Source: Dehalococcoidia bacterium (lineage in GTDB: Bacteria; Chloroflexota; Dehalococcoidia; GIF9; AB-539-J10). Taken from it: a DNA stretch of 55,469 nt. Position 1 is the stretch's first letter; each line of letters starts with the position of its first letter. The notes beneath the pieces were generated by a model. That model worked only from the letters and a program-made list of their open reading frames with translations, did not search any database and was not told the DNA's origin. This document shows positions 14,078 to 40,890 of this stretch, piece after piece. The DNA is taken from assembly GCA_003567655.1 (NCBI GenBank), contig PWZA01000022.1:1-55469 (forward strand), in the 5' to 3' direction. Position numbers and translations under genes: made by a program.

Positions 14078-14117
14078 GAAGGTTACATTATAAGCCTCGA
14101 TGTGACGGAGCGCAGAA

Positions 14118-22106: not shown

Positions 22107-23407
22107 CGATTCCTCCGCCAGGCAGCCCTCACCAGTGGTGCCAATGGGCTGTTTCCGTTCCACACAGCGACACGTACGCCTGCCGACATGAGAATGCGCA
22201 GCATCAGCTCTTGTTCGACAGCCATCATGCGGCTGGCAAGCGACAGTGCAGTCTTGCTATGTATTGGACGGCGTGTGCGAGCCTCTAGGTGGACTGTTTC
22301 TAACTGTTTTGCTCTGATGGATGGGAAGGGATCCGGCACCAGTGCCAGCACTTCATAACCTCTGGCGCGCAGCATTCCCAGCGCTTGCTCGTCGCCCGGA
22401 GCAAATGGGGACACAATCATTATGGATGAACCGGTGGGAAAGAGACGGGCGGGGAGATTCCCCAGGTGGGCGAACGCCTCGGATGATCCAAGCTCCGCTC
22501 TCGATAATCCGTGGAGTAGCCGCTCCATGTGTAGTCGTCCGCTTCCGTAGAGAACCCACTCGAGTCGCTCGCCATAGAGCAGAAGACCGGTCCGGTGCCC
22601 GTCTCTGATTGCCGAGTCACATAGGGCTGCGCATGCCCGTATCGCCTGCTCAAACAGATCTGAACCGCCTGCGGCCTGGTAGATTCTATCCCGTCCGTCG
22701 AGTATCACCGTAACGTCGGCGGCCCGCTCCCCTTCATACAGGTTGGTCACAAGCTGATTCCGGTGGGCCAGGGTCTTCCAGTTGATGCGGCGCAGGTCGT
22801 CACCCGGGATGTAGGGCCTGGTGCCCAAGAACTGCACTCCCACTCCATCCCGGCGGGAAGGGGCTGTGCCGGGTCTGGATAGCGTTCGACGAGGCGATAG
22901 CTGAACGTGACCAATCCGGTCGTAGCGTGGTAGAACCCAGACGGGTGTCGGAAAGGGGAGGCTGCCTTGCCAGGCTACGAAGCCCAGAAAGTCTCGTGTT
23001 GAGACATGTGCTCCTTCCACCGGGTAGAAACCCCGCATCGGTCGGGTAACATATGAGAGCACCAATGAACTGTTTGCGGGAATCCGACCGGCCAGACTAG
23101 GCGATCCTTCGCTGATAAAGCGGGCAAGCGCCCCATCTTCGGTAAGCATAGCCAGGTCCGGACCATGCCCCGCTTCATCCAGGGCAAGTTCAGCCTCTAT
23201 ATCGTCGCCATCGTGTATGTGCTGGGCGGAAAGCGAGCGACGGAGTCGCGCTTTGTGTGCTGCCCCGGCCAGCAACAGCCCCAGGGTGATGTGCACTGCC
23301 AGAGGGATAGCCAGAAGGAGTAGTGCTGGATTGGCCAGGATCAGACCGGTGAGCAGGATAAGCGCCATTAGTCCGAACTCCACGCCCAGCTTACGTGTAC
23401 CCTGCAT
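22103..23407 (-). CDS. DUF58 domain protein (vWA-like, MoxR partner)
   Basis: The DUF58 signature region GDDLRRINWKTLAHRNQLVTNLYEGERAADVTVILD is present. It has two N-terminal TM helices and lies directly downstream of the MoxR ATPase. Confidence 0.8.
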   Translation of the reverse strand: MQGTRKLGVEFGLMALILLTGLILANPALLLLAIPLAVHITLGLLLAGAAHKARLRRSLSAQHIHDGDDIEAELALDEAGHGPDLAMLTEDGALARFISEGSPSLAGRIPANSSLVLSYVTRPMRGFYPVEGAHVSTRDFLGFVAWQGSLPFPTPVWVLPRYDRIGHVQLSPRRTLSRPGTAPSRRDGVGVQFLGTRPYIPGDDLRRINWKTLAHRNQLVTNLYEGERAADVTVILDGRDRIYQAAGGSDLFEQAIRACAALCDSAIRDGHRTGLLLYGERLEWVLYGSGRLHMERLLHGLSRAELGSSEAFAHLGNLPARLFPTGSSIMIVSPFAPGDEQALGMLRARGYEVLALVPDPFPSIRAKQLETVHLEARTRRPIHSKTALSLASRMMAVEQELMLRILMSAGVRVAVWNGNSPLAPLVRAAWRRNR

Positions 23408-23409
23408 GG

Positions 23410-24342
23410 CTAGACCTTAGGTACGGGAATTCTCTCCAGGATACCTTCAACAACTTGATCCGGTCGAAGCTGTCGCTGCCATAGCTCGGGCTTGATGATC
23501 AGTCGATGCACCAGCGCAGGGACTGCCACTGCCTTTATGTCGTCGGGGATGACATAATCCCTGCGCTCCAGCGCTGCACGTGCCCTAGAGAGCAGCAAGA
23601 GTGCCAGAGTGCCCCGCGGGCTCGCTCCTACCTCCACCGAGGAGTGCTCGCGCGTAGCTTCTGTCAGGCGAGCCATATACTCCAGCAGGTCGGGATCGAT
23701 ATGGACATCCTCTAGAGCCGTGCGCATACTCAGTAGCTCCTCAGCAGCAGTCACGGATTGCAGTGTCTCCTCGGGCACTCGTCGAGCGATACGGCGGGAG
23801 AGGATCTCTACCTCATCGGCAGGCCCCGGATAACCGAACCGGGCACGGACTAGGAATCGGTCTAGCTGGGCCTCGGGCAAGGGAAAGGTGCCTTCGTACT
23901 CTATCGGATTCTGTGTCGCGACAACCATAAAGGGTTGAGGCAAGGGATGGGTCTCGCCCTCAAGAGTGACCTGTCCCTCCTGCATTGCTTCGAGTAGGGC
24001 CGATTGGGTTCGTGGGGTGGCCCGGTTGATCTCGTCGGCCAGGAGTATCTGAGCGAAAACAGGGCCGGGCCGTAGCTCGAACTGCTCCTTCTCGCGGCGC
24101 AGGATGTAGGTGCCCACGACATCCGCGGGCAAGAGGTCGGGTGTGAACTGAATGCGCTTGAAGCTGAGTCCGAGGACCCGCGCAAAGGAGCGAGCTGCCA
24201 GGGTCTTGGCGAGGCCGGGATAGTCCTCAATCAGTACATGGCCGCCGGCGAGAAGGCTCATCAAGATCAACTGCAGCGGGTTCCGTTTGCCCACGACCGC
24301 CCTCTCTATCTCTCCCAGGATACTGTCACACCGGCCTGCCAC
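23410..24342 (-). CDS. MoxR-family AAA+ ATPase
   Basis: Walker A-like EDYPGLAKT, Walker B LLADEINRA and the sensor region VVATQNPIE are present. The GTG at 24342 lies 1 nt after the upstream stop and gives 310 aa. The 370-aa ORF-track version would overlap the upstream gene by 179 nt. Confidence 0.9.
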   Translation of the reverse strand: MAGRCDSILGEIERAVVGKRNPLQLILMSLLAGGHVLIEDYPGLAKTLAARSFARVLGLSFKRIQFTPDLLPADVVGTYILRREKEQFELRPGPVFAQILLADEINRATPRTQSALLEAMQEGQVTLEGETHPLPQPFMVVATQNPIEYEGTFPLPEAQLDRFLVRARFGYPGPADEVEILSRRIARRVPEETLQSVTAAEELLSMRTALEDVHIDPDLLEYMARLTEATREHSSVEVGASPRGTLALLLLSRARAALERRDYVIPDDIKAVAVPALVHRLIIKPELWQRQLRPDQVVEGILERIPVPKV

Positions 24343-24343
24343 G

Positions 24344-24904
24344 TCAGCTAGCTTCAAAGGGCCCTCCTTGCGCGTAGCGCTCCATTGCGTCCAGAGTGTG
24401 CTCAAGATCGTCGGCGTAGCTCTCGTTAGGGGTCGGTGCCTTGTCGCTATGGGGTTGCAGCAGCGCTGCAACCCCATGCTGCTCGGGCCACCTGCCTTGG
24501 CGCAGTTGCTGTCTGGCATCATCCAGGTGGATCCCTTCTTGTAGGGCTCGCAGGCCTGCCGCGGTTTGGCAGAGACGCCTTCCCAGCACGTCGCGTGCCC
24601 AGGCAGAAGTCTCTCCTAACTCGATGAGAGCGGTCAGACGGTCGAGTTGGGTTTCTCTCACAATGGGCTTGACCGTGGACTCCTGGTTACTGTGGTGGAG
24701 TGCACGTGTAAACGATAAGACAGCGGTGAATCCTACTATTGACAGCACCCACCATATCAGCTGCTGGGGCAATGAATCCAGCAGCCACCAGAGTTGTGTC
24801 AATGGCTCTCTGAGCAGGGTATCCACCGGGATGCGCACCGCTGAGATGAGCAGTGCGGCTATGGCCAGCGCTGCGGCGACCTTCGCTACTCTACGCATGG
24901 CCAT
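24344..24904 (-). CDS. Hypothetical membrane protein in the MoxR operon
   Basis: It has two N-terminal hydrophobic helices and then a soluble domain. It overlaps the DUF4129 gene by 14 nt. No family was recognised. Confidence 0.5.
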   Translation of the reverse strand: MAMRRVAKVAAALAIAALLISAVRIPVDTLLREPLTQLWWLLDSLPQQLIWWVLSIVGFTAVLSFTRALHHSNQESTVKPIVRETQLDRLTALIELGETSAWARDVLGRRLCQTAAGLRALQEGIHLDDARQQLRQGRWPEQHGVAALLQPHSDKAPTPNESYADDLEHTLDAMERYAQGGPFEAS

Positions 24905-25787
24905 ATGCCTCCTCGATCTCGGCCAGGGCGGCGATTGCTCGATCTCGCCTGGGGGCGTCTGCTTTACTACCGTAGCGGACTTCTTCGAACAACCTGGTGA
25001 GCTCGGCTACTGCTTCATGCCGCACTCCCCATCTGGCCAGAACGCTGGCCAACTCGCGAGGCGTCATCTCAGGGGCATGCCCGCCGGCCCTGTCAGCCAG
25101 AATCTCTGCCATCCGGGCCCAGCAACGGATCACTACTTCGTCGAAAGGTAGTCCAGCTCGCAACTCGGCCGCTGCCTCGGCGGCTATGTGCTGGAGGCTG
25201 TCCTCGAACACTTCCGTGCGCTTGCGTCTGGCCGCCCGGCGAATCAAGTGCCATCCCAGCCACACCACCGGCACTGCGAGAGCCGTGGCTACGATATATG
25301 TCACCCACCAGGGGAGCTGTGCCGGAGAGTGCGGTGTCGTGTCTGCAGGACCGGGCTCGGGCGTTGTGAAGGGTGGCCGCCATGAGTCCGCCGGGGGACC
25401 GGTAATCAGCTCTTGCTCGGCCTCTTCCTGGACGGGAAAAAGTCCGTGCCCGGCTCTGAGGCCTATCAAGGCCAGGATTACCATGAAGACGATCAGTACC
25501 CTGAAGCGGACAATCTCTCGCAGGAGCTTGCGGCGGAAGACCACCGCTCCAAAGATGAGGATCCCGAGAACAACCCAGGGCATGACCTCGAGTATTCTCT
25601 CCAGCAGGTCATAAGGGAAAGGCAGAAGATATGTGCCGCCCGGCTCGCCCATCTCACTCTCATCCAGGCCGAGAGTTCCGCCTCGGAACTCCAGCGTCTG
25701 CAGCCCGGCGGCCAGCATTCCCAGCAGGACCACCATCGTCAACCCCAGGGCCAAGACTCGCCACTTGTTCATCGTCCGACCCATCAT
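24891..25787 (-). CDS. DUF4129 domain membrane protein
   Basis: The C-terminal pattern TPRELASVLARWGV...LTRLFEEVRYG is typical of DUF4129. Several TM helices lie upstream of it. Confidence 0.65.
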   Translation of the reverse strand: MMGRTMNKWRVLALGLTMVVLLGMLAAGLQTLEFRGGTLGLDESEMGEPGGTYLLPFPYDLLERILEVMPWVVLGILIFGAVVFRRKLLREIVRFRVLIVFMVILALIGLRAGHGLFPVQEEAEQELITGPPADSWRPPFTTPEPGPADTTPHSPAQLPWWVTYIVATALAVPVVWLGWHLIRRAARRKRTEVFEDSLQHIAAEAAAELRAGLPFDEVVIRCWARMAEILADRAGGHAPEMTPRELASVLARWGVRHEAVAELTRLFEEVRYGSKADAPRRDRAIAALAEIEEAYGHA

Positions 25788-25994: not shown

Positions 25995-28900
25995 TTACTG
26001 CCCCTCTCCCAATTCCTCCAGAAGCGCCGAGAGCAACTCTCTCTGAATGGATACGGGGAGGTCGAGTTCCTTAAGCAGCGCGTCTATCTGTGTTCGGGCG
26101 TGGAGTATCTGCTTCTCATGGGTGTTTGATCCTTTCGGGTCTACCTCCGGCCTCCAGTTCTCGATACTCTGCTTTGCTGATCGGAGTCTGGCCAGATATG
26201 TAGCGCTCCGGTCGGCTTCCCATTCCATAAACGGTTTGAGACGCATCCTTTCTGGCAATCTGTTGAGCATTCGCTCGATGATCGGAGTGCCCTCGCGAGC
26301 CGCCTCGATAAGGTGTCCTTCATCGCCCCTGAATGGGTGCATGCGTTGCACCTCAGTCAAAGCCCGATACCAGCGTTGCATGGCAAGAGCTGCCTCCTCC
26401 TGATGCTCTGTCTCAGCCCCGAACATGGCTCCTATCGCGGCAAGCAGCCTGCTCGCCCTCGCTCCTGCATATACATCCATCTCAGCAATCGCTCTGCGTA
26501 GCGAATCGAGTATCTGCTCGCATACTGCATGATCTCCAAGGTCGGTAGTATCAGCATCAAATCCGAGTGCAGCAGGGATCTGTCTCTGGATGATCTCTCT
26601 CGCGTGCCCGGTCTTCTCCAGATTGGCCAGGACATCAAGCAGGGGCCGGCACTGTTGGTTTTCAAGATCAGAGGCCGTTCGCGTCACTGCGGGCAATTTG
26701 CGGTACCATGCCAATAGGGCGTGCCTGGCCCGGTCCCAACCCGCGAAGTCGGTCAATGTCTCTTCGTCCACTGCGGTGAGGCGTATTATTCCGTTGACGT
26801 ATGCTCTTTGGGTGGGCGGCACTTCGTAGTAGTACACTACGAAGTCGGAGGGATTCCTTACCAGGTTTGCCACATCCTCGCCGGACAGGGGAAGGCATTC
26901 ATTGAGCGAATCGGGATTATGCTCTCTCTTGGCTTTCTCGAAGTTGTTGAAGACGACGGTATCCTCGCGTCGAGTGCGAAGAAACGCTGCCAGAAACAGC
27001 TCCAATGCCTGATTCGTGAGTCCGTACGGCGGCTCAATCAGGGGTATCACCAGTTCGGTAGCTGGAGTGACCTTGCCTCCCCGGGCAAGAGCCTGCGTGT
27101 TGAGGAACTCCCAGATTTCCCGGGCCGCCGAGTTCTCGGGGGCCTCATCCCGCATCTCAAACTCCTCGATGTTATCCCGGTCTGAAACTCTTTCCAGGAG
27201 TCCGACGTCCCTGAGGCAGGAACGCAGAATGCGTTCAGAAGCCGGACATCCCTTCTTGCTTAGCTGTATCGGTCCCTCTGTCTGCAAGAGCACATTCATC
27301 GCTGTCCAGCGGTGTTTCTTGCTTCTGTCGGTGGTGCTTATCGGGTTGGCGATAGTCTCATCGTTAATGTAAGGAGTCTTGGGGAAGATCTCCTCAAGCA
27401 CCTCAGAGATGAATTTCTCCTCGCCCCCTTGAGGCATGTCCGTGACCACGTTACCGTCCCGATGCCATGTCAGGTTGCTCGCGTGCAGGAAGTCCCGCAA
27501 ACCGTTGACCATATCTTCTCTGACACTTGCCTCCAGTATCTCAAACTCCTCGCTATCGACCTCGCCCTCATCTGTCTTCAGGCCCCGTTGCCTGACTGCT
27601 TGCACGGCAGTCCATTCGAGAGCCGTCTCGCCAAAACGGGCAGGTGTTTTTGGGATGGCGACAACCAGTTGGGGGTGCTTGCATATGTCCTGGCTGACAA
27701 GATGCTCTGCATTGCTGATATCCTCAGGGGTAGTTGCCACAACGTATGTAACCAGTGCGTCACCTTCGTGCTTAGCTCTGTCAGGCACATACCAGCTCTG
27801 TATTCGTTCCACATATTTCTCGGGACTCGAGAGATCTAACACGCCAATGAAGAGACAAGCAGCGTATCTTCTGGTGAAGTGCTTTGCGGAGTAATCGAGA
27901 GCTTCAACAGCGGGGAGGGCATGGTTCGTATTGAGATAGTCCTTAAGGTCGAACCCATCGTCGATTATCGTCTGTCTGGCTTTTCGCACTGCCTGACCTG
28001 CGTCTATAGTTCCCGGTCTGCCAGGCAGTTCATAGCGCTTTGTTATCGGGCGGCAGCGCAGATAACCCCTCTCCACGAGATCAGCGAGCGCCTGCGCCAG
28101 GTCCTTCTGGCCGGACGAGACATGTAATGCCTCCAGTATGGTTCTCTCAGTAGTGGGTAACAGGGGATGGTTGACTACAGAGAGGACGGCGATCACCTTC
28201 AATGCGCGCGTGGCCAGAGTATTGCGGCGCACCAGTGCCGACGCGTTATCCACCGCATCCACGATATATCCGTAGTCGGTGTGGGCATGTATCTGCCCTT
28301 TGTAGTAGTCATACAGCCTGTCCACAGTATAAAGGTTCAGCCTGTTGTCGGACTGCAATACGGTATTCTTGTCCATGAATCCCTGTAACCCGTTCTCAGA
28401 TGGATCGCCCAGGAGGGCGAAGAGGGTCCGTTCGCGCTGCTGAACCACGGAATTCGCCAGCCAGAGTAAGCAGAATGTCGCATATGGATGTAGTGGATAG
28501 CAGCCCTGCACAAGCCGCGATCTTATCCAGGATCTGTTCTGATCAGGATAGAGCCCTCTATCTTGTACGAGGTCAGTCAGAACACTAACCTCCGCGTGGG
28601 CTGCGACTCGCTTCCAGGTGTCGCCGGCCTTCTGCTGTACCAGTATCGCCCCTATTATCTCCTCCATCTCGTGTTCGCCACCGACTGCTGCCAGTTGATG
28701 ATCGGCACTCGTGAACTCACTACAGAGTTCGCTCCATTCTTCCGGAGATCGCATGTTCCCTGCGTAGTCATCGAGCGTCTGATGGGCGATTGCCACCAGG
28801 TGACACTGGTTGTGACCGCTTCCTTTACAATACGTGACGAATGACTGAAGCTGCTGGGTTTCGAATGAACCGGGATCCTCTGCCATATGAGAGAGATACC

Positions 28901-29684
28901 GTGCAAAGTCGTCATAGAAGATGAATACACCCTGCCACTGGCTGGTACTCCTCAGATGCTTTATCGTTTGATTGTAGACCTGGGCGGGATCAGCGGTGAG
29001 CTGAGGGATGAATGGAGCGCCATGCATGACCTCTCTGTGGAGTTCCTTGAACAGGCCGTAGCCACTCGTTTTGTATCGGGCCAACTCATCACTCACCATC
29101 TCCGGCGTCTTACCTTGCCTCAGGCAGGCATCCTCAAATCTCCTGTAGACCTCGGCATCGGTCATCATCCACGTGTTAATTGAGTCTAATGCAGCGAGAA
29201 ACACAGCGGGTGGATCATAGTCGATTCCTTCTGTGCGCAGAGCCTCAGCGAGAGAGGCCAGCAAGGAGTAGTTGAAGCTTTCGGGGCTCCAGGAAGGTTC
29301 TGGAAGCACGACCAAACACTTGCCCACGGCCCGGCGTGTCTGCCTTATGAGACTGACCAGTTGTTCGTCGTCCTGTTCCAGCTTTCTGAGAAACAGCGAC
29401 AGTGCCGGGTCATCAATGTCTCGCGATATCAGATTCGCCAGCACCAATCCGAAGTGGGACTTGCCTGTACCGCAGGCACCGCTTATCACGTGCACACGGG
29501 TCTTGGATTCGGGCTGCAGGCCTTCGAGGATGCCGCGTATTGCTGTTCTGGCGCCGCGTGGCGCTATGTAGCTTCTAAGCCTTCTATCATTTACCCTGGG
29601 GTCAAGGAAGTCACGCTTCAAGCATACTTCATCGGTAAGAGATTGCGCGATGCTGACCAAAGAACTGAGCTTCCGCTTCATCAT
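25995..29684 (-). CDS. Large P-loop NTPase, BrxC/PglY-like (DUF499/DUF6079 class)
   Basis: The 1229-aa protein has Walker A GACGTGKSHFGLVL at about residue 70. The same position and GKSHF context occur in BREX BrxC as I recall it. FIFYDDFARYL is Walker-B-like. The size matches BrxC at about 1200 aa. No other BREX genes are present in the window. Confidence 0.6.
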   Translation of the reverse strand: MMKRKLSSLVSIAQSLTDEVCLKRDFLDPRVNDRRLRSYIAPRGARTAIRGILEGLQPESKTRVHVISGACGTGKSHFGLVLANLISRDIDDPALSLFLRKLEQDDEQLVSLIRQTRRAVGKCLVVLPEPSWSPESFNYSLLASLAEALRTEGIDYDPPAVFLAALDSINTWMMTDAEVYRRFEDACLRQGKTPEMVSDELARYKTSGYGLFKELHREVMHGAPFIPQLTADPAQVYNQTIKHLRSTSQWQGVFIFYDDFARYLSHMAEDPGSFETQQLQSFVTYCKGSGHNQCHLVAIAHQTLDDYAGNMRSPEEWSELCSEFTSADHQLAAVGGEHEMEEIIGAILVQQKAGDTWKRVAAHAEVSVLTDLVQDRGLYPDQNRSWIRSRLVQGCYPLHPYATFCLLWLANSVVQQRERTLFALLGDPSENGLQGFMDKNTVLQSDNRLNLYTVDRLYDYYKGQIHAHTDYGYIVDAVDNASALVRRNTLATRALKVIAVLSVVNHPLLPTTERTILEALHVSSGQKDLAQALADLVERGYLRCRPITKRYELPGRPGTIDAGQAVRKARQTIIDDGFDLKDYLNTNHALPAVEALDYSAKHFTRRYAACLFIGVLDLSSPEKYVERIQSWYVPDRAKHEGDALVTYVVATTPEDISNAEHLVSQDICKHPQLVVAIPKTPARFGETALEWTAVQAVRQRGLKTDEGEVDSEEFEILEASVREDMVNGLRDFLHASNLTWHRDGNVVTDMPQGGEEKFISEVLEEIFPKTPYINDETIANPISTTDRSKKHRWTAMNVLLQTEGPIQLSKKGCPASERILRSCLRDVGLLERVSDRDNIEEFEMRDEAPENSAAREIWEFLNTQALARGGKVTPATELVIPLIEPPYGLTNQALELFLAAFLRTRREDTVVFNNFEKAKREHNPDSLNECLPLSGEDVANLVRNPSDFVVYYYEVPPTQRAYVNGIIRLTAVDEETLTDFAGWDRARHALLAWYRKLPAVTRTASDLENQQCRPLLDVLANLEKTGHAREIIQRQIPAALGFDADTTDLGDHAVCEQILDSLRRAIAEMDVYAGARASRLLAAIGAMFGAETEHQEEAALAMQRWYRALTEVQRMHPFRGDEGHLIEAAREGTPIIERMLNRLPERMRLKPFMEWEADRSATYLARLRSAKQSIENWRPEVDPKGSNTHEKQILHARTQIDALLKELDLPVSIQRELLSALLEELGEGQ

Positions 29685-29832: not shown

Positions 29833-30642
29833 TTAGCCATGATAAAGTGCCCGGAACAACCCCAGATACCAGTCGAGCATCGTGGTGCCGAACAGTATGG
29901 TGGCTATAGCAGCCAGTGAGAGAAATGGCCCGAAAGGGATGCCTTCCTTTCGCCTCCTTTTCTTGAACAGGAGTAGAACCAAGGCAACGACGCCTCCAAG
30001 GATTATGGCCAGGAGTAGGGCAACGAGTATGAGGGGGAACCCGGTAACCAGTCCTATCAGTGCCGCCATCTTGACGTCTCCCCAGCCCATACCACCGCGA
30101 GACACCAGTGCAATGAGGAGCAGTATGCCGAAGCCTACTCCTGCTCCCAGCGCAGCACTGGCGAGCCTGTCAACCATGCGATCCGCAAGCCAGGGATGAG
30201 GTATCAGGGTTAGAAGCAGAGCCACAACCATGCCGGGATAGATCACCTTGTTGAGAATCAGTTGGTGCTCCAGGTCAATCACGAAGATCACGATAAATAG
30301 ACAGGCATAGAAGGCCATGACCGCGAAAGCCACGATGCCCAGGTCAGGATTCAGCACGATGCACCACCAGTAGAGGAACGCGAAAACTCCGCCCGTTGCC
30401 AGTTCCACCCACAGTGACCTGGGCGATACCGTGCATCCACAGTATCGACAGCGACCGCGCAGTCTGAGATAGCTGAGTATAGGGATGAGGTCCTTGAAGA
30501 CCAGTCTGTGCTGGCAGGACTCGCAGTGAGAAGGGGGCTTTACAACGGACTCGTTTCTGGGCAGGCGATCAATGCATACCCCGAGGAAGCTGCCTATTGC
30601 CAGACCGATACAGGCAAACAAGAGCATCCACAGTGTTTCCAT
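29833..30642 (-). CDS. pilD: Prepilin peptidase, bacterial PilD type (peptidase A24 with N-terminal Cys-rich domain)
   Basis: The Cys motif is CESCQHRL...GRCRYCGCTV. The catalytic Asp contexts IFVIDLEH and GMGWGDVKMAALIG are present. ATG 30642 is preferred over TTG 30678. Confidence 0.88.
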   Translation of the reverse strand: METLWMLLFACIGLAIGSFLGVCIDRLPRNESVVKPPSHCESCQHRLVFKDLIPILSYLRLRGRCRYCGCTVSPRSLWVELATGGVFAFLYWWCIVLNPDLGIVAFAVMAFYACLFIVIFVIDLEHQLILNKVIYPGMVVALLLTLIPHPWLADRMVDRLASAALGAGVGFGILLLIALVSRGGMGWGDVKMAALIGLVTGFPLILVALLLAIILGGVVALVLLLFKKRRRKEGIPFGPFLSLAAIATILFGTTMLDWYLGLFRALYHG

Positions 30643-30725
30643 GGCGGCTATTGTGGACGCTTTTGACGATCCAGTCAATAGTGTATAGGGAGTACGATAA
30701 AAGGACTGTCAGATATGCGGCGCTG

Positions 30726-31022
30726 TTAGCTGGCCCTGTTTTTCAGTATGTCCGTGAGTTTGAGGAAGAGCAGCAATAGGGACGCCATGACCAGAAGATA
30801 GGAGCACAGCCAGATGACGGTCATCTCGGCAGTTCCTATTGAGTAGCCCATGAGTAGCAGTGTATAGGGTATCGCAAGGAGCGCCCAGCCTGTAGCCATG
30901 ACAATCCACAGGGTCCATCGCTGACCGGTTCTCTTGATGGTCAACAGGTATCCGAGTGCGGACAATGCTGCAATGAGCCAGGTAAACCCGAAATTGACGA
31001 GGTTCACTGTGAGTGCGCTCAT
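30726..31022 (-). CDS. Small 3-TM membrane protein, unknown function
   Basis: The 98-aa protein has three hydrophobic helices. It lies co-directionally between the acidic protein gene and pilD. No family was recognised. Confidence 0.5.
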   Translation of the reverse strand: MSALTVNLVNFGFTWLIAALSALGYLLTIKRTGQRWTLWIVMATGWALLAIPYTLLLMGYSIGTAEMTVIWLCSYLLVMASLLLLFLKLTDILKNRAS

Positions 31023-31142: not shown

Positions 31143-32180
31143 TCAACGATCGGATCTCTTTAACCTGTCAAGCAATTCCATTCCTTTCTGCAATATTTCG
31201 CTGACATCGACATCCTCCACTTCGTCGGCCAGCTTGTTGCTTTGCGTGTCTTCAGAAGAACTCCTGGCGAACAGATCGGAGAGGTCGCCCATGCTTTGCT
31301 TCTCTGCATCAGGCGTCTCCTCATCGGTTTCGTCTGAATCCATTTCTGCTGCTGGCCTCTCCGCACCGGGCTGCTCCTGATCCGCTGCGGGCTCGGCGCC
31401 TTCGCTTGTGTCGCTCTCGCTTGTTAGGGAAGAGGTCTCTGTACTCTGTGACTGTTCTTCTCTCTCTCCGCTCGAGGCCGGACTTACCGGCATCGGGTCG
31501 CTAGTTTCTTGCTTCACTTCACTCTCAGCTCCTGTATCCATCTCAGCTTCGGTCTCGTCCTTCGTATGAACTGCTTCTGGAGTACGTGTCGGGGTGGCCT
31601 CCTCTGCTGTCGGGCCTTCTTTGCCCTGCGAAGGTTCTTGAGTGGTTTCCTGTTGTCTCAGCATATCGGTGTCGGCAGAGGTTACGTCTGGCTCATCGGT
31701 AGGCAAGACATCGTCCACGGATTCGTCCTCCGGTTCTGTCGGCGGCTTCGAGCTCTCCTGCAACGCAGGTTCTTTAAGCTGGGCCCCTTCGTAACCCCGG
31801 TGATCACTGAGTCGTATCAACTTGATACTCCTGATGACCGACCACCATCTTACAACCGTCGCAAGTGCCGAACTCTTTGCCCGTAGTAAGCCGGGCATAG
31901 CTAGCTGAGTTGGCGAGTCCATCCTCGAAGCCCTCTCTGTTTCATGAAGGGCCCGTCTCCGTATGAAGCGCGTGAACCGACCCTCGGAGGTGGGACGCAG
32001 TTCGACCTTTGATTTACGGACGGATTGTTTCGGTTCTCTTTCAGTTTCAACCGCGAGCTCCCGGGCACGTTTCGAGGAAGGAAGCCTCAGCAAGTAGCTT
32101 ATTGTCAGTGTGATAACGGTCAGTGCTCCCGCAAGGATCACCATGTAGGAGAAGAGTATTCCGATCATTGCTGTGTCCAT
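31143..32180 (-). CDS. Single-pass membrane protein with basic juxtamembrane segment and ~200-aa highly acidic low-complexity region
   Basis: The N-terminal TM helix is IGILFSYMVILAGALTVITLTISYLL, followed by an R/K-rich stretch and then a long D/E/T/S/P-rich region. It lies 32 nt downstream of arlJ. No family was recognised. Confidence 0.55.
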   Translation of the reverse strand: MDTAMIGILFSYMVILAGALTVITLTISYLLRLPSSKRARELAVETEREPKQSVRKSKVELRPTSEGRFTRFIRRRALHETERASRMDSPTQLAMPGLLRAKSSALATVVRWWSVIRSIKLIRLSDHRGYEGAQLKEPALQESSKPPTEPEDESVDDVLPTDEPDVTSADTDMLRQQETTQEPSQGKEGPTAEEATPTRTPEAVHTKDETEAEMDTGAESEVKQETSDPMPVSPASSGEREEQSQSTETSSLTSESDTSEGAEPAADQEQPGAERPAAEMDSDETDEETPDAEKQSMGDLSDLFARSSSEDTQSNKLADEVEDVDVSEILQKGMELLDRLKRSDR

Positions 32181-32212: not shown

Positions 32213-33715
32213 TTAGAGCATGCCGAACAGCATGTGTACTGTTGAGGGCGCGACGGTGATGACCACACCTGATATCGCTCCCGTCAGGCCGATGTAGAAG
32301 AAGAGTTTCTTTGGATGCCCCCCGCTGATGGAGTACATGGCGAAGGCATTGGCAAAGGTCAGTATGAAGACGATCGTCATGACCATGAAATAGAGGATCT
32401 CGATGTGCAGTGAGTCAGTGCCGAACAGGCCGAACGACGTCATCCCTGGCATTACGCCTTCCTGGAAACCTTCATCCGGCATGAGCCTCTGTACAAGATG
32501 ATAGAAGGTAAGGAAGACAGAGTAGACGAATACCGCAAGTGTGGTAAGCACCGCGTGCATAACTACCGTCAGCCAGGTGAATCCAGCCGATATCTGGCTC
32601 CGTTGTGCTCGCAAGAGAGACACCTTAAGAGCGAAGGCACTCGCTTCATTACCTACTTCCTGTGGCTCACCCCCCAGTGAAATCCCGTCCCAGAATGTGG
32701 TCACACTCCGGTTTATGAGCTCAGAGCCAGTTTCTCCGACAAATCTTCTCCAGCAGGTGTAAGGGGTAATGCCAGCAACGAGGCGAGTATGGAGGAGACT
32801 TACCTCTTCCTTCAGTATGCCTAGGGAGCGGAAGTCTATTCGACTGATAGCCTCGGCGGCGGTGGCTCCTATGGCCTGCATCACTCCCCCGAGAGAGCGG
32901 AGGAAAGCGGCTATATCATCGTCTCGCTGTGCCACCCTTCTATCATCCAGCATGACAACGACACCTACCGCAAGCAGAAAGAGGCTGGCGATGATGATGA
33001 CATTGCCCAGATCAGCTCCCAGCACAAGCAGCGATATTACAACAATGCCTCCTATGGGAAAGACTAGCTTCGCCAGATTAATGGCAAAGTCCTGCTCTTT
33101 GGAGTGGATGGGCAGCGAATGAATCTTGACTTCTCGGGGCGCCGTGCGGTACAGAAACCAGACCCCTGTGAGGGTCACCCCGATGGTGAGGGCCGCCATT
33201 GAGAACAGAAACGGGAGTGTGATGTTTCCGATCATCATGGTCACTACTATCATGACGGTGACCAGGGCCGACGTAAGGATCAACGACACGTATGCGTCGG
33301 ACCACTTCTTCAGGATGTCAAGCTTCCGTTCATAGCTGTTGCCGTAGGAGTCGGAGAGAATCGCTGACTCACGGGATAGGAAAGCTGCGATATCCTCCCC
33401 TGAAGCCAGGGCGCCTGACATTCGTAGCAGAAGGGCTTTGATGGCCGGTTCCCTGGTCTTCTCGCCCACGATGCGGCATGCCTGTGAATAGTCGTGGTTG
33501 AACATCTTGGCAACGAAGTCAACCCTTCTGAAATAGCGGGTAGCTATGTAGGGTAGTTTGGCAGCTTGGTAGAAGAGCCCGCTTCTAGATATGCCGGATG
33601 TTGCGATTGCCGCCATGTATGCCAACTGGCAGAAGAAGTCGACCTCCAATAGTTCGCTATCGAAGCTGTCGGACTTCTGTTTCGCCTTCTTCTTACCGAA
33701 CCGAGGCAACTGCAT
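32213..33715 (-). CDS. arlJ: Archaellum platform membrane protein ArlJ (FlaJ; T2SS-F family)
   Basis: The 500-aa polytopic protein has two cytoplasmic T2SSF-like helical domains (FFCQLAYMAAIATSGISRSGLF...; FLRSLGGVMQAIGATAAEAI). Its start overlaps the arlI stop by 1 nt. Confidence 0.85.
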   Translation of the reverse strand: MQLPRFGKKKAKQKSDSFDSELLEVDFFCQLAYMAAIATSGISRSGLFYQAAKLPYIATRYFRRVDFVAKMFNHDYSQACRIVGEKTREPAIKALLLRMSGALASGEDIAAFLSRESAILSDSYGNSYERKLDILKKWSDAYVSLILTSALVTVMIVVTMMIGNITLPFLFSMAALTIGVTLTGVWFLYRTAPREVKIHSLPIHSKEQDFAINLAKLVFPIGGIVVISLLVLGADLGNVIIIASLFLLAVGVVVMLDDRRVAQRDDDIAAFLRSLGGVMQAIGATAAEAISRIDFRSLGILKEEVSLLHTRLVAGITPYTCWRRFVGETGSELINRSVTTFWDGISLGGEPQEVGNEASAFALKVSLLRAQRSQISAGFTWLTVVMHAVLTTLAVFVYSVFLTFYHLVQRLMPDEGFQEGVMPGMTSFGLFGTDSLHIEILYFMVMTIVFILTFANAFAMYSISGGHPKKLFFYIGLTGAISGVVITVAPSTVHMLFGML

Positions 33716-35451
33716 TAGAAGAGCCCCTCTCTCTGCGCTTTTGACAATACCTCAAGGACCTCGTAGAATCCTGTGACCTTCTTCTCTCTGTGTAGCCTGG
33801 CCAGTATGTTGGCCCGCCTCTCTAACTCCGTGTATATGGCCCGCTTATTATTGGCCTGTATACCGAGCCTGGGGGCTACCTTGTACTCCAGGACGTAGCT
33901 GATCATATAGCCGGTAAACTCGAAGACATCCTTTTCCTGGTCCCACTTGAAGCTTTCCACGAATGAGAATGAGTCCAGCGCGGGATCATAGTTCACGATT
34001 TCTGCGATGCCTGTGACCCGTCTCCCCGTTCTTCCTCCGGGCAATTTGACCTGGCTGGTGAGGATGACTACATTGAGGTTATCCACATAGTTCTTCGGCA
34101 CCAGTATGGGGTCGCCGGTGATCCGCTGAACGAGCTTTTCCACGGACGCCGCATGAAATGTGGCCATGACTGAGTGACCGGTTTGCATCGCCTGGAAGGC
34201 TATGTTGCCTTCGGCACCGCGTATCTCACCCACCAGTATTTCATTGGGTCTCTGGCGCAGTGCTGCCTTCAGTAGGTCGAACATGCTGACCGCCCCACTG
34301 GTGTCATCGGTTCTGGTTGTCTGGGCCACCTCTCTGATCCAGTTCTTATGGGGCACCTGCAACTCCGGAGTGTCCTCCAGAGTTAGCACCTTTGATAGAG
34401 GCGGTATAAAGGTGGTTACGGCGTTGAGCAACGTTGTCTTGCCGGAGGCGGTTTCGCCTGAGACGAACACGTTCATCCCCGAGCCTATGACCAGTGACAA
34501 ATACGCCAGCATGTCATAGTTCAGAGTGCCGAACTCCAGCAATTCGAATATGGAGAGAGGGGTTTCGCTGAACTTACGGATACTGAAGTTGGAGCCGCGC
34601 CTTGAGACTTCCTTGCCGTAGACGATGTTTATCCGTGACCCGTCCGGAAGGGTGGCATCGGCTATAGGCCTCTTGTAGTTGACCGGCTTCTTTACCCGTT
34701 CAGATAACCAGAGCACGAATTCGTCGAGCTCTTCGTAGGCGGAGAATTTGATTGTGCTCTTGAGGCTTTTGAAGATCTTGTGTTCAACGAATATGTTTCC
34801 CATGCCTGAACAGCTGATATCCTCGATATAGGGGTCCAGCATCAAGGGGTCCAGGACTCCCACGCCGAGCTTGTCCCGGACAAACAGGTACCTGAGCGCG
34901 TCCAGTTCTCTTGATGTGACTCGGATCTTGGAAACGGCAATGCCGTCCTTACGAAGAAAGCCTACAGTGTTATCGAGGAAGCTCGGAAGCGGCTGGTCGT
35001 CGACGCTGGTCACCATATCGAGCAGGTCCAGAAGCTGTGCTTCCCTGTCCCCCGCGAGATCGAGGTGCGGAAGCTTCTTGCGGAGTTCCAGGAGCTTGAT
35101 TTCTATACGCTGCATCAGCGGGTTAAGGCCGGCGGTTAGCGGCTCTATGGGTATGTAACGGTTTCTCACGTCATCATCGTCAGATAAGATATGGATGAAG
35201 ACATTCTTGCTGCGAATGGGGTAGATGTAATTGGGTTGCTTGTTGTCGCCCAGTTGGCGAGAGGGCTCGGGCACGAACTCGGGCATCCCTATCTCTGATA
35301 TTGGTAGGCCGCTCACATAATCCAGCACATGCGGGTGCTCTGCGCAAACTGACCTCAAGGGTTCCGGTAGTGCCTCTGCCACGGCGTGGTTTGGCGTACC
35401 GAGGTCTTCCCTGGTTACTGTTTCGACCGTAGAAACGGAAGTCGCCGTCAT
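33715..35451 (-). CDS. arlI: Archaellum motor/assembly ATPase ArlI (FlaI), paralog 1
   Basis: It has Walker A GETASGKTT, the Asp box LTLEDTPEL, Walker B ILVGEIRGAE and the His box ATFHA. The size (578 aa) and N-terminal domain are FlaI-like. Confidence 0.9.
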   Translation of the reverse strand: MTATSVSTVETVTREDLGTPNHAVAEALPEPLRSVCAEHPHVLDYVSGLPISEIGMPEFVPEPSRQLGDNKQPNYIYPIRSKNVFIHILSDDDDVRNRYIPIEPLTAGLNPLMQRIEIKLLELRKKLPHLDLAGDREAQLLDLLDMVTSVDDQPLPSFLDNTVGFLRKDGIAVSKIRVTSRELDALRYLFVRDKLGVGVLDPLMLDPYIEDISCSGMGNIFVEHKIFKSLKSTIKFSAYEELDEFVLWLSERVKKPVNYKRPIADATLPDGSRINIVYGKEVSRRGSNFSIRKFSETPLSIFELLEFGTLNYDMLAYLSLVIGSGMNVFVSGETASGKTTLLNAVTTFIPPLSKVLTLEDTPELQVPHKNWIREVAQTTRTDDTSGAVSMFDLLKAALRQRPNEILVGEIRGAEGNIAFQAMQTGHSVMATFHAASVEKLVQRITGDPILVPKNYVDNLNVVILTSQVKLPGGRTGRRVTGIAEIVNYDPALDSFSFVESFKWDQEKDVFEFTGYMISYVLEYKVAPRLGIQANNKRAIYTELERRANILARLHREKKVTGFYEVLEVLSKAQREGLF

Positions 35452-35474
35452 AGTAGTTTTCCCGGCTTGCCCTG

Positions 35475-37217
35475 CTAGAACAAGCCCTCCTTCTGCGCCC
35501 TGCTGAGCACGTCCAGCACCTCGTAGAAGCCGGTAACTCCTTTTTCCTTGTGCAGTCTCTCAAGGATGGTAGCCCTCTTCTGTACTTCGGCATATATCCG
35601 CGTCTTCTGATTGGCGGGAATGCCTAGCATTAGTGCGATCTTGAATTCCATGATATAGCTGGTCATATAGCCGGTGAACTCGTAGCTATCGGTTGCCTGG
35701 TCAAATCTGAAGGCCTCTGCAATGTTGAAGGATTTCGACAGGGAGTCCCAGCCTACTATCTCGGCGATGCTGGTCACACGACGTCCTATCTTTCCGTTTG
35801 GTAGGCGCACTATGCCCATCAGTACGGCAATATTCAGGTTGTCGATGTAGGTCGTGGGTACATTGATCGGATCTCCTGTAATGCGTTGGATGAGTTTCTC
35901 AATGGAGGCGGCGTGAAAGGTGGCCATCACCGAGCGTCCTGTCTGCATAGCCTGGAAGGCTATGTTTCCTTCTTTGCCCCTGATCTCTCCGACGATGATC
36001 TCGTTCGGTCGCTGCCGAAGGGCGGCCTTTAGGAGATCGAATGTAGTTACCGCGCCGCTGGTATCATCTGAACGTGTGGTCTGGACCACTTCCCTGATCC
36101 AGTTCTGGTGCGGCACCTGCAGTTCCGGAGTGTCCTCGATAGATATGACCTTGGCGCGCGGCGGGATGAACACCGTGAGGGCGTTTAGCAGGGCGGTCTT
36201 GCCCGATGCCGACTCGCCCGAGACGAAGATGTTCATTCCGTTACTGACCGCGAGTGAAAGGTATGCCAGCATCTGATAGTCGACGGTGCCGAATTCGACC
36301 ATGTCGAATATCGAGAGAGGAACCTCGCTGAACTTGCGAACACTGAAGTTAGAGCCGCGCTTGGAAACGTCCCGACCGAAGACGATGTTGATCCGTGATC
36401 CGTCCGGCAGCGTGGCATCGGCAATCGGTTTCCTATAGGTAATCGGCTGCCTGACACGCTCAGCCAGTCGGATGACGAAATCGTCGAGTTCGTCGAGATT
36501 CGAGAAGACTATGGTGCTCTTGAGGCTCTTGAAGATCTTGTGTTCAACGAATACCGCTCCCAGCCCGGAGCAGCTTATGTCCTCGATATAGGGGTCGAGA
36601 ATCAGCGCATCCAGAAGGCCCATGCGCACCTTGTCTCTGATGAAGAGGTATTTGATCCCGGCTAGCTCTCGCTGGTTGACCTTGATCTTGGGAACTGTGA
36701 TGTCGTCACTGCGGCGTAGGAAATGAAGATACTTCTCGAGCACGCCGGGAGGGGCGATCTCCTGCTCGGTCGTGACCTGGTCGACGTATGAGAGAAGGTG
36801 CTCTTTTCTGTCATGGTCGGGGTTGATGCCCGGAATGTTCTCGCTGACGGCTATGCAGGCGTCCTCGACTTCTCTCATCAGCCCGCTGAGGTCCAGACTT
36901 GTAGTTGGCTCGATCGGAATGTAGTTGTGCCTGTCACCGCTATCGTCGTGTAATATGTGGATGAAGATCCCGTCTGTGCCGGCAGGATAGACGAGGTTCG
37001 GTTCCGTGATATCGGCCATTTTCCTGGAGAGCACAGGCCGATAGTCGGGAATGCTGAATCCAGAAGCTCGCAAGCGGCTTATGTACTCCAGGAGGTGTGG
37101 GTGTTCTTCGCAAGCGGCTCTCAGTGCCTCATGTCGGATCTCTTCGAGCGACATGGTTTCGGAACTCCCGAGATCGGGAAGGCTCTCGATTATGGGTTGC
37201 GTTTCTACACTTGCCAT
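35475..37217 (-). CDS. arlI: Archaellum motor/assembly ATPase ArlI (FlaI), paralog 2
   Basis: It has Walker A GESASGKTA, ISIEDTPEL, IIVGEIRGKE and ATFHA. It is collinear with paralog 1 over the full length. The C-terminal two-thirds is highly similar and the N-terminal ~200 aa is diverged. Confidence 0.9.
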   Translation of the reverse strand: MASVETQPIIESLPDLGSSETMSLEEIRHEALRAACEEHPHLLEYISRLRASGFSIPDYRPVLSRKMADITEPNLVYPAGTDGIFIHILHDDSGDRHNYIPIEPTTSLDLSGLMREVEDACIAVSENIPGINPDHDRKEHLLSYVDQVTTEQEIAPPGVLEKYLHFLRRSDDITVPKIKVNQRELAGIKYLFIRDKVRMGLLDALILDPYIEDISCSGLGAVFVEHKIFKSLKSTIVFSNLDELDDFVIRLAERVRQPITYRKPIADATLPDGSRINIVFGRDVSKRGSNFSVRKFSEVPLSIFDMVEFGTVDYQMLAYLSLAVSNGMNIFVSGESASGKTALLNALTVFIPPRAKVISIEDTPELQVPHQNWIREVVQTTRSDDTSGAVTTFDLLKAALRQRPNEIIVGEIRGKEGNIAFQAMQTGRSVMATFHAASIEKLIQRITGDPINVPTTYIDNLNIAVLMGIVRLPNGKIGRRVTSIAEIVGWDSLSKSFNIAEAFRFDQATDSYEFTGYMTSYIMEFKIALMLGIPANQKTRIYAEVQKRATILERLHKEKGVTGFYEVLDVLSRAQKEGLF

Positions 37218-37278: not shown

Positions 37279-37995
37279 CTAGGCCCTTGCTCTCGAGAGA
37301 GGCATAATCTTCATGCCTATCTGCGGCTCGACCTCGAAGGTTATTATGTTGCCTGTGGTTTGTGCGGCGCCCCTGACCTTTGCCACCTCCAGTGTCTTAA
37401 CCAGCTTGTCGCCGATCTTTTCGATCATCAGTCTGAGGTGGGCATCGGAGGCCGACCTCACACGCAGCAGGACGCGTGTATCGAGGGCATAGCTATGCAT
37501 TACGTTGATTATCGTCCGTCCCTGGTCGCAAAAGTACTTGCACCGCTCGATGTAGTGCATGATCTCGACATCGCTTACGATAGGTAGCATGGGGGTCAGC
37601 GAGTCCACTATGATGAGGCGGTGTTCGGTGTGTTGAGCAGTGGCATCGAGTATGGTAGGGAATGCATCGTTGGCTCGGTCCTTGAGTTGCGACGGCCGCA
37701 TGTAGTAGACCTTGACCCTGCCCAGGAGCAGATAATCAAGAATGTTCAGGCCCAGGCTGTCCATCTGCGTCATCAGGCTTTTCGTTGTGTTCTCGGTGGT
37801 GAAGAGAATCACCTGGTAGCCATCGTTCAGCGAGCCCCAGATCATCTGCTGACAGAAGACTGACTTACCGGAGTCAGATTCGCCCTCGACAAGGGTAAGT
37901 GAGCCTATGGGAAGACCCCCGCCCAGCCTCTTATCGATTTCGGAGTGTCCGGTTGAGATTATGTTCTTCTTTGCCTCTTCTGTCGCTGCTTCCAT
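37279..37995 (-). CDS. arlH: Archaellum KaiC/RecA-like ATP-binding protein ArlH (FlaH)
   Basis: It has the KaiC-like pattern STGHSEIDKRLGGGLPIGSLTLVEGESDSGKS and the Walker B-like RLIIVDSL. The ATG at 37995 lies 1 nt after the upstream stop. Confidence 0.8.
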   Translation of the reverse strand: MEAATEEAKKNIISTGHSEIDKRLGGGLPIGSLTLVEGESDSGKSVFCQQMIWGSLNDGYQVILFTTENTTKSLMTQMDSLGLNILDYLLLGRVKVYYMRPSQLKDRANDAFPTILDATAQHTEHRLIIVDSLTPMLPIVSDVEIMHYIERCKYFCDQGRTIINVMHSYALDTRVLLRVRSASDAHLRLMIEKIGDKLVKTLEVAKVRGAAQTTGNIITFEVEPQIGMKIMPLSRARA

Positions 37996-38539: not shown

Positions 38540-39019
38540 TTACTCCATACTGAATGAGGTTTGGCTGGAGATTCCATTCGGCAGCACGATCTTGAACCAG
38601 TAGTTATCCTGTGGCAGCGGCTCCTCAAGGTTGATGGTAATCCTGTTCGTAACCGACTGTCCCCAGAAGCTGTAATTCCCCTCCAGTTGATAAGTCCAGT
38701 ACGGCAGCGCCGATCCTTCGTCTCCGTAAGGGATTCTTGACAGTTCGCCGTACCGGCCGAAGAAGACATCGCTGTTCTGAATCGCTCCGATCTGCGATGT
38801 ACCTACGTTCTTAACCCAGGCATCCACAGTGCTGTTGCTCCCGGCAGCGTGGATGATTTCCACTTGACTTCTGATACGGTCGCTTACAACAGTGACGGAG
38901 TCGCTTACTGCCTGACCTCCCCTCTCCACCGCCGGGTAGACTCCGTTGAATATGGCGAAGGACGCTACTACTCCGCCTATAATCAGCATAACCGTAACGA
39001 TTATCTTATCCATGGGCAT
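38540..39019 (-). CDS. ArlF/ArlG-family archaellum protein (N-terminal TM helix + beta-rich domain)
   Basis: The N-terminal helix is IIVTVMLIIGGVVASFAIF, followed by VEIIHAAGSNSTVDAWVKNVGTSQI, an archaellin-like beta-sandwich pattern. There is a 3-nt gap to the next gene. Confidence 0.6.
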   Translation of the reverse strand: MPMDKIIVTVMLIIGGVVASFAIFNGVYPAVERGGQAVSDSVTVVSDRIRSQVEIIHAAGSNSTVDAWVKNVGTSQIGAIQNSDVFFGRYGELSRIPYGDEGSALPYWTYQLEGNYSFWGQSVTNRITINLEEPLPQDNYWFKIVLPNGISSQTSFSME

Positions 39020-39689
39020 CTTGGCCAGACAGAATCGAAAGCAGGGCGGCCTCTGTCTGGTTGTCCTTGCCGAGGAGGGTGGTGATCTTCACCAGCGAGT
39101 CCAGAAATGCCCTTGCCGAGCGAGCCTCCGAATTGCCGTTTCCGTCTATGCTGACGAACTTCTTCATGATGCCCTTAAGGTCGGGCGAGAGGAGACCCAT
39201 CATCTCGGCGACATCGAGAATGGTCTCCGTCCTTTCAAGTCCCAGTCTCTTGACGGATTCATCGGCCCAGTTCACCAGTCCGCCGATCGTGATAAGGTTT
39301 AGCTCGCGCTCCGAAGCGTGGGTCTTCTGCGGTTTCTGGACGGCTGGAGCTTTCTCCGGCTTATGCGCCTTTATCACCTCCTCGCGCGCTCTTTCCGGAT
39401 GCCTTTCCTTTACTGTCTCGTTGGCTGCCATCGTTTCCTCTGGTATGTCCTCTTCCTCTTTCTTGTTTGAAACGTCGTCTGGCTCCGCCTGGGGCTTCGA
39501 GTCGTTGTCGGCAGGTTGCTGGTCAACCGCGAGTTGCTCTTGGCCGGTGGCAACCTTCTCAGAGGGCGCATTGAACGGGTTATCGGCCTCCAGATACTTG
39601 TCTCTTAGGTCGAGCAGTACCGCCTGAACCTCGTTCTTCAGTATCTTGATGTCGCTTTCCAGATGGCCTATGTTCTCAGTTGTCTCCAT
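39006..39689 (-). CDS. ArlC/D/E-like archaellum accessory protein (coiled coil + acidic linker + FlaD/E-like C-terminal domain)
   Basis: The C-terminal LNLITIGGLVNWADESVKRLGLERTETILDVAEMMGLLSPDL resembles the FlaD/E pattern (L..W.eFL...G......L.YY...GWIS). Its position between arlB and arlF matches euryarchaeal operons. The call is tentative. Confidence 0.5.
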   Translation of the reverse strand: METTENIGHLESDIKILKNEVQAVLLDLRDKYLEADNPFNAPSEKVATGQEQLAVDQQPADNDSKPQAEPDDVSNKKEEEDIPEETMAANETVKERHPERAREEVIKAHKPEKAPAVQKPQKTHASERELNLITIGGLVNWADESVKRLGLERTETILDVAEMMGLLSPDLKGIMKKFVSIDGNGNSEARSARAFLDSLVKITTLLGKDNQTEAALLSILSGQDAHG

Positions 39690-40557: not shown

Positions 40558-40890
40558 TTAGCTGTCGTTATTGCCTTTCGACCTCCTGGTATTGCGAGAG
40601 CCTGAAAGGGGCGGTTTATCAGGCCTGGCTGTGCGTTTGTTGCCTGTGGTAACCGGTCTATGTTCCAGGCGCTCGCCGTTGTCCCGGAGGTCCTCTCCTG
40701 TATCGACCTCAGCCAGGAAGCGAGCGATTTCCCGGTATTCAAATCGGCGATCGCCCCGGGGGGCGATGCGGTATGCCTTGATCCTCCCGTCTTTGCTCCA
40801 GCGTCTCAGGGTGTTGGGGTGAACATGGAGGAGGCGTGCCACCTCCTTCACAGTGAGCATTGCATGCATCTTGTCATTACCTTCCATCAT
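40558..40890 (-). CDS. Excisionase/MerR-family helix-turn-helix DNA-binding protein with basic tail
   Basis: LTVKEVARLLHVHPNTLRRWSKDGRIKAYR is the typical excisionase-family HTH. An AGAGGAG RBS lies 9 nt before the ATG. It sits immediately upstream of arlB and co-directional with it. Confidence 0.75.
   Translation of the reverse strand: MMEGNDKMHAMLTVKEVARLLHVHPNTLRRWSKDGRIKAYRIAPRGDRRFEYREIARFLAEVDTGEDLRDNGERLEHRPVTTGNKRTARPDKPPLSGSRNTRRSKGNNDS

Follow-up and report, generated by a model that had tools for sequence, protein, structure and literature searches.

Described archaella have a single ArlI, and how one ArlI hexamer both assembles the filament and drives its rotation in two directions is an open question in archaellum research. 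Here we analysed a locus that encodes two ArlI paralogues, on a contig (PWZA01000022.1) of the Chloroflexota metagenome-assembled genome (MAG) GCA_003567655.1, labelled Dehalococcoidia bacterium; the whole analysed stretch of 55,469 nucleotides (nt) is referred to as the window, and feature coordinates are positions in it. The norm of one ArlI per locus, from which a preliminary description of the window had started, is borne out by a 2026 survey of archaeal type IV filament (TFF) loci, which states that each archaeal TFF subsystem keeps one copy of its ATPase, in contrast to bacterial systems. Similarly, Desmond et al. 2007 reported duplications of whole clusters and of flaG, flaD and flagellin genes, and no duplication of flaI inside a cluster. 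The published paper on the archaella of Chloroflexota mentions arlF duplication and a variable arlHIJ order, built its tree only from loci with one arlI and one arlJ, and does not describe an arlI duplication; the accessible part of the Nature Microbiology supplement text lists neither the genome of the window nor arlI copy numbers. The ArlI proteins of the window share their family, fold, motifs and genomic partners (arlB, arlG, arlF, arlH and arlJ) with the archaeal ArlI/FlaI of S. acidocaldarius (PDB 4II7/4IHQ) and with the ArlI of Litorilinea aerophila, a bacterium with an archaellum, which are present in single copy, whereas two paralogues are found per locus here. Within the literature searched, a conserved two-ArlI locus looks like an undescribed arrangement.

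Two full-length ArlI proteins in one archaellum cluster

The preliminary description had reported a tandem arlI duplication, and both the coordinates and the FlaI scores agreed with this claim: two full-length open reading frames (ORFs) of 580 and 578 aa lie 23 nt apart inside a complete archaellum cluster, all on the minus strand, with arlH and arlJ flanking the pair (Table 1). The arlJ-proximal gene is called copy A and the arlH-proximal gene copy B, and their products were 61% identical over 566 aa. Against the NCBIfam FlaI equivalog NF058587, which has a curated cutoff of 550 bits, copy A scored 630.7 bits and copy B 607.6 bits, with alignments covering model positions 2-522 of 527. For both copies, the PilT models gave 54-66 bits and the PilB models 46-52 bits, and GspE and VirB11 likewise stayed far under the FlaI score. 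A pair of the PilB/PilT type was therefore ruled out as a family assignment, since both copies matched the FlaI model far above PilB/PilT and fell into one clade with a bootstrap of 100. The alignment of copy A with S. acidocaldarius FlaI (PDB 4II7) had an E value of 5e-130, and the Walker A, Walker B and His-box segments matched. For copy B, an AlphaFold2 model (mean predicted local distance difference test score, pLDDT, 74) was compared with the PDB by Foldseek, and the best match was FlaI 4IHQ/4II7 (E 3.5e-44, ~548 columns); the template modelling (TM) score to FlaI was just 0.42-0.47, as expected of a hinged two-domain protein. This model contains a three-helix bundle in its N-terminal part (helices 111-125, 137-148 and 159-167), and copy B is thus predicted to have the FlaI-type two-domain fold with its N-terminal domain. 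Collectively, family score, catalytic motifs and locus context (arlH, arlJ, arlF/arlG and archaellin) place both copies in the ArlI/FlaI family.

The catalytic strings quoted in the preliminary description were all present: Walker A reads GETASGKTT in copy A and GESASGKTA in copy B, the two Walker B strings are ILVGEIRG and IIVGEIRG, and PDGSRINIV/EDTPEL and ATFHA were found as well. Both copies thus carry the Walker A Lys, the Walker B Glu, an Asp box and a His box, as secretion-superfamily ATPases do. The accompanying claim that both copies keep their catalytic motifs needs one correction, in that the first His-box His of copy B in the window is Arg (TGR for TGH, codon CGC). This H428R substitution was all that distinguished copy B from its counterpart in a sister assembly, and His occupied the position in every one of the 265 other ArlI sequences; the Arg reflects strain variation or an error of assembly and does not characterise the paralogue. 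Among 98 sequences of the A type and 105 of the B type, conservation of the Walker A, Walker B, PDGSRINIV/EDTPEL and His-box motifs was at least 90%, which, together with low ratios of nonsynonymous to synonymous divergence (dN/dS) and the absence of H428R from the sister assembly, sustained the earlier view that neither copy is decayed.

Age, spread and divergence of the duplication

The spread of the pair was assessed in 79 species-representative genome loci and 81 metagenomic loci, the best 80 of each collection. Both types were carried by ~54 of these 160 loci, always in the order arlH-B-A-arlJ, and five loci had B alone, with the contig ending there in each. The remaining loci, from more distant Chloroflexota and four Methanosarcinales-type archaea, had one arlI (two independent tandem pairs are described below). 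Duplicated arlI was accordingly found neither common nor already characterised in archaea, the four archaeal loci sampled agreeing in this with the 2026 survey and Desmond et al. 2007. In a neighbour-joining tree, all sequences of the tandem loci, hereafter the main clade, formed one clade with a bootstrap of 100 and with no single-copy locus inside it, which indicates that the duplication arose within Chloroflexota. Among the inspected loci no single-copy revertants were found inside the clade, and both paralogues co-occurred throughout it in fixed order. These results demonstrated that the tandem arlI duplication took place once, in Chloroflexota after the acquisition of the archaellum, in the ancestor of a Dehalococcoidia clade, and that both copies have been kept since. 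The closest relatives of the window carry the labels Dehalococcoidia or Dehalococcoidales, and a contig of GCA_003564015.1 (PWSK01000140.1) was almost identical to that of the window.

Two kinds of irregular loci were encountered in this survey. A Dehalococcoidia-type arlI pair was carried by a contig of 3 kb (L003, JBEKCX010000768.1, labelled Terracidiphilus sp.) from a MAG with an Acidobacteriota label, and this contig was probably mis-binned. In three metagenomic loci (L101, L124 and L133), one arlI copy was split into two ORFs, reflecting either frameshift assembly errors or occasional pseudogenisation.

Inside the main clade, the split between A and B was weakly resolved by neighbour-joining (bootstrap 27-58%; B clade 8/30), and site patterns and diagnostic residues were therefore relied on instead. 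Six informative columns grouped the copies by position, 0 by genome group and 0 crosswise, and B was derived in five of the six. The changes Leu120 to Cys and Phe497 to Ile (A numbering; Cys121 and Ile499 in B) were fixed in 13/13 versus 13/13 genomes, and the same two residues also distinguished the copies in L010 and L013, whose placement in the tree had been ambiguous. In the database, over 100 proteins resembled A more closely (65-85% identity) than B does, and the same was true of B with respect to A.

Synonymous sites between A and B were saturated, with a proportion of synonymous differences (pS) of 0.73 and a synonymous divergence (dS) of ~2.8, and no 30-codon window fell below pS 0.49. 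By these values, together with a direct-repeat identity of 71-76%, a recent duplication or ongoing gene conversion was ruled out. The near-identical DNA that the preliminary description had pointed out between the copies does exist, the 35-nt stretch at 34759-34793 differing from 36519-36553 by one mismatch where 0 matches were expected by chance, but with synonymous sites saturated it is no sign of recent duplication. This patch (35 of 36 nt) encodes the conserved peptide FVEHKIFKSLKS, its identity exceeded the codon-resampling expectation only modestly (P ~0.005), and paralogue pairs from other genomes lacked it, with 24-30 of the 36 nt identical. It may, at most, represent a short (micro) gene-conversion tract specific to this lineage. 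The pair of locus L013 (287-3799) was more similar, with a dS of 0.52 and the two copies being sisters at a bootstrap of 99, yet the A and B diagnostic residues were kept, which suggests partial gene conversion between the L013 paralogues.

Purifying selection has acted on both copies as strongly as it has on single-copy arlI: in close orthologue pairs, dN/dS was 0.059 for A, 0.026-0.044 for B and 0.02-0.10 for single-copy arlI. The strong divergence of the N-terminal region, which had been put forward as a difference between the paralogues, was confirmed as a measurement, the first ~180 residues being the most divergent part between A and B (10-47% identity), but not as a paralogue signature. 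Entropy was high at residues 1-30 and 106-180 in either paralogue clade as well as in single-copy ArlI, and single-copy orthologue pairs of similar overall divergence had equally low identity in these two segments. Because they are equally variable in single-copy ArlI, the N-terminal divergence is background and was rejected as a mark of paralogy.

Fourteen positions were conserved within each type and different between the types, namely nine at A 462-505, two in the P-loop (S331A and T334S), two at 120/121 and one at 534. Across the 13 genomes, B had six derived conserved residues and A one; the B-type diagnostic residues were C121, I122, S336, M467, N498 and I499, and A464 was also among the type-specific fixed residues of B. 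Over residues 451-520, the paralogues were 50-63% identical, compared with 70-76% for comparable single-copy orthologue pairs, and consensus identity between the clades was 0.88-0.92 over the ring-forming region, residues 241-450. When placed on the copy B model, the fixed sites lay in the core beta-strand after the His box (B463-471), in the following hairpin (B477-506) and in the first bundle helix (B111-125). By the general topology of such ATPase folds, this core strand should lie beside the P-loop strand, and if it does, the P-loop and core-strand changes may constitute a single patch close to the nucleotide site. The C-terminal location of most B-specific changes would, speculatively, also fit a change in how B contacts ArlH or adjacent subunits. 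Copy A kept the outgroup state at 10 of the 14 fixed A/B differences, its identity to single-copy ArlI was 53.7% versus 51.9% for B, and in matched genome comparisons B evolved slightly faster (0.367 versus 0.351 for A). Judged from these sequence comparisons, copy B is the derived copy and copy A lies near the ancestral sequence.

Two further tandem arlI pairs were independent of the main clade. One is locus L044 on the complete Dehalococcoidia MAG chromosome CP070819 (7911-11477; dS 1.3) and the other is locus L060 (2923-6492; dS 0.7), and each pair grouped with its own relatives at a bootstrap of 100. The Walker-A residue Thr334 (GE-T-ASGKT) is Thr in 61 of the 62 single-copy ArlI, yet each of the three duplications was followed by its substitution in one copy, to Ser in most B-type copies, to Ala in the downstream copy of L044 and to Ala in the upstream copy of L060. 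An L010-like subgroup of B-type copies still has Thr at this position. Apart from Thr334, no convergence of the L044 and L060 duplicates at the B-type diagnostic sites was found.

How two ArlI proteins may serve one motor

Each locus carries one copy each of arlJ and arlH, and we infer that neither ArlI protein is redundant and that both work on one shared ArlJ platform and one shared ArlH ring. The arlJ start overlaps the copy A stop codon (TAATG), the spacer between the two arlI genes was 5-35 nt in 12 other genomes, and no promoter or terminator signal above background was detected between the genes, including the 23-nt spacer. Our preference, held tentatively, is that A and B co-assemble into mixed ArlI-A/ArlI-B hexamers. 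It is preferred because a freshly duplicated homomer would cross-assemble by default, because A and B appear to be made from adjacent, co-transcribed genes of one apparent operon, and because the ring-forming C-terminal domains have stayed 80-90% identical, with 88-92% over residues 241-450 at the consensus level. The fixed B-specific changes would then have made both subunits indispensable, either by tuning ATP turnover and partner contacts or through a neutral ratchet. Duplicated homomers usually stay heteromers when they are co-regulated. Several considerations weigh against mixed rings. The physical interaction of A with B is itself something that we infer, and tandem adjacency, being the default state of any tandem duplicate, says little on co-assembly. 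Crystallised FlaI hexamers are two-fold, a symmetry that a ring of strictly alternating A and B subunits could not truly have. Moreover, the hosts are uncultured, and expression of either gene copy is predicted only.

The obligate co-occurrence of the paralogues is also compatible with two specialised homohexamers that alternate on ArlJ, one serving assembly and the other rotation, or each serving one direction of rotation; this is the main alternative, which we hold to be possible though not probable. By a logic like that of PilB/PilT, the ancestral-like A might assemble the filament and the derived B drive its rotation, or the reverse. Such an arrangement would accord with the full catalytic motifs kept by both copies, with the fixed derived changes of B near the P-loop and core strand, which could alter kinetics, and with the genetic separability of assembly and rotation within the single ArlI of S. 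acidocaldarius, as described in a review; in bacterial TFF systems, duplication of the ATPase did serve different functions, and the replacement of Thr334 in one copy after each of three duplications hints at recurrent specialisation. Yet domain architecture and length do not differ between the two proteins, neither of which has lost an N-terminal domain in the manner of PilT, only ~6-14 residues are fixed between the types, and C-terminal domains so similar would need specific interface changes to avoid cross-assembly; the copies also appear, from their spacers and the lack of an internal signal, to be tightly co-transcribed and not separately regulated. Taken by itself, the proposition that the jobs of ArlI are split between the paralogues (assembly versus rotation, or two rotation directions), whether as exchanging homohexamers or as an ordered mixed ring, strikes us as rather doubtful; if true, it would mean that functions combined in all archaella studied so far have here, for the first time, been separated in nature.

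That the copies are interchangeable isoforms, retained for dosage or to suit different conditions (ecoparalogues) and each able to run the motor alone, seems unlikely. Archaellin ecoparalogues are known in archaea, and the three or more independent arlI duplications in Dehalococcoidia (L044, L060 and the main clade) could reflect a dosage benefit; however, dosage duplicates tend to be homogenised or lost, yet the synonymous sites here are saturated, the type-specific residues are fixed in 13/13 genomes, neither copy was lost in ~54 loci, and no separate promoter signal lies between the copies. It is very improbable that one copy is a decaying or non-catalytic remnant, or that the pair arose recently or through misassembly. 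The Arg at the universally conserved first His-box His in copy B of the window would fit a remnant or artefact, as would the split arlI ORFs of the three metagenomic loci, but H428R is absent from the otherwise identical protein of the sister assembly, B-type dN/dS is 0.03-0.04 with motifs at least 90% conserved in 105 B-type sequences, and the pair recurs in independent assemblies from many samples at a dS of ~2.8. Whether the two proteins form mixed hexamers, as we prefer, or separate ones, a clade with two non-identical and intact ArlI on one ArlJ/ArlH amounts to a natural dissection of the motor, and the type-specific fixed residues (in B: C121, I122, S336, A464, M467, N498 and I499) are targets for mutagenesis in tractable single-copy systems.

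Gene layout and comparison with known systems

The features of the archaellum cluster and its surroundings are collected in Table 1. The 227-aa protein encoded between arlB and arlG had no significant family match in Pfam/NCBIfam profile searches, and a homologue was found at the equivalent position in most loci inspected. The MerR/HTH_17-type gene directly upstream of arlB was conserved in the clade (L082, 2180-2425; L083, 3232-3432) and is a candidate transcriptional regulator of the archaellum operon. Downstream of arlJ, proteins of 345 aa (31143-32180, minus strand) and 98 aa (30726-31022, minus strand) were encoded that had no family matches; homologues of the former (28-42% identity) occurred at the equivalent position in several related loci, and the two may be clade-specific archaellum accessory genes. 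The PilD-type peptidase gene lies ~1.5 kb downstream of arlJ on the same strand with two genes between, and in L082 an equivalent gene (13927-14685) holds the same position; the published Chloroflexota archaellum study places the prepilin peptidase outside the archaellum locus. A 1229-aa ORF (25995-29684, minus strand) had no Pfam match and only a faint BrxC-like P-loop similarity, and it adjoins MoxR-AAA, DUF58 and DUF4129 genes (22103-25787).

Table 1. Coordinates of the archaellum genes and related features in the window
Feature	Position	Strand	Evidence or remark
HTH regulator	40558-40890	-	small, MerR/HTH_17-type
arlB, archaellin, 196 aa	39828-40418	-	Pfam Arch_flagellin 1.6e-20
227-aa protein between arlB and arlG	39006-39689	-	ArlCDE-type proteins expected at such a position
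arlG-like stator protein, 159 aa	38540-39019	-	weak NCBIfam ArlG match, below cutoff; position conserved
arlF-like stator protein, 179 aa	37997-38536	-	Pfam Arch_flagellin 30.2 bits; position conserved across loci
arlH, KaiC-like, 238 aa from ATG start	37279-37995	-	NCBIfam FlaH NF004723 266.6 bits; ArlH NF052589 198.5 bits
arlI copy B, 580 aa	35475-37217	-	upstream, arlH-proximal; derived paralogue, judged from sequence
Spacer between the arlI genes, 23 nt	35452-35474	-	sequence read directly
arlI copy A, 578 aa	33715-35451	-	downstream, arlJ-proximal; closer to the ancestral state, judged from sequence
arlJ, platform protein, 500 aa	32213-33715	-	NCBIfam ArlJ/FlaJ NF004703 E 4e-124 (below curated cutoff) and Pfam T2SSF
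Bacterial-type prepilin peptidase (PilD-like)	29833-30678	-	Pfam A24_N_bact 1.8e-30; Peptidase_A24 6.8e-17
Segment with the fixed-residue cluster, copy B residues 464-502	35712-35828	-	copy A equivalent 33952-34068; codons verified
His-box H428R codon CGC in copy B	35934-35936	-	singleton variant
35-nt patch	34759-34793	+	34/35 identical to 36519-36553; encodes FVEHKIFKSLK in both copies

Variation in other archaellum genes was also seen among the inspected loci. ArlF was enlarged to ~535 aa in L005 and L097, and ArlH carried an N-terminal extension (~355-370 aa) in L041, L046, L048, L050 and L057. The gene order was arlJ-arlH-arlI in L051, L053, L062, L070, L075 and L078, which is consistent with the published remark on arlHIJ variation. 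In the window, the order arlG-arlF is that of the arl2-type loci described for Chloroflexota.

Among other machines, the PilB/PilT/PilU ATPases of type IVa pili resemble the pair described here in being duplicated hexameric ATPases of the same superfamily that serve one machine and share one platform protein. PilB and PilT, however, are set apart by deep divergence and by their domain architecture, and their genes usually lie at separate sites, whereas the two ArlI copies are 61% identical, have the same architecture, lie adjacent and are mutual closest relatives. The analogy to PilB/PilT drawn in the preliminary description is therefore a weak one, because both copies share the full FlaI architecture and are each other's closest relatives. 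The Tad pilus ATPase CpaF/TadA has the next-closest solved fold and, like ArlI, is one ATPase that does two jobs; it is single-copy and non-rotary, and shows that bifunctionality needs no duplication. The duplications known from archaeal fla/arl loci, namely the Methanosarcina fla2A/fla2B whole clusters and the tandem flaG, flaD/E and archaellin genes, show that filament, stator and switch parts are commonly duplicated, and none of them adds a second ATPase within one cluster, unlike the duplication described here. The two-ArlI locus contradicts the generalisation that archaeal-type filament loci always have one ATPase, and after its transfer into Bacteria the archaellum motor has taken, on at least three independent occasions, an evolutionary path that is unreported in Archaea.

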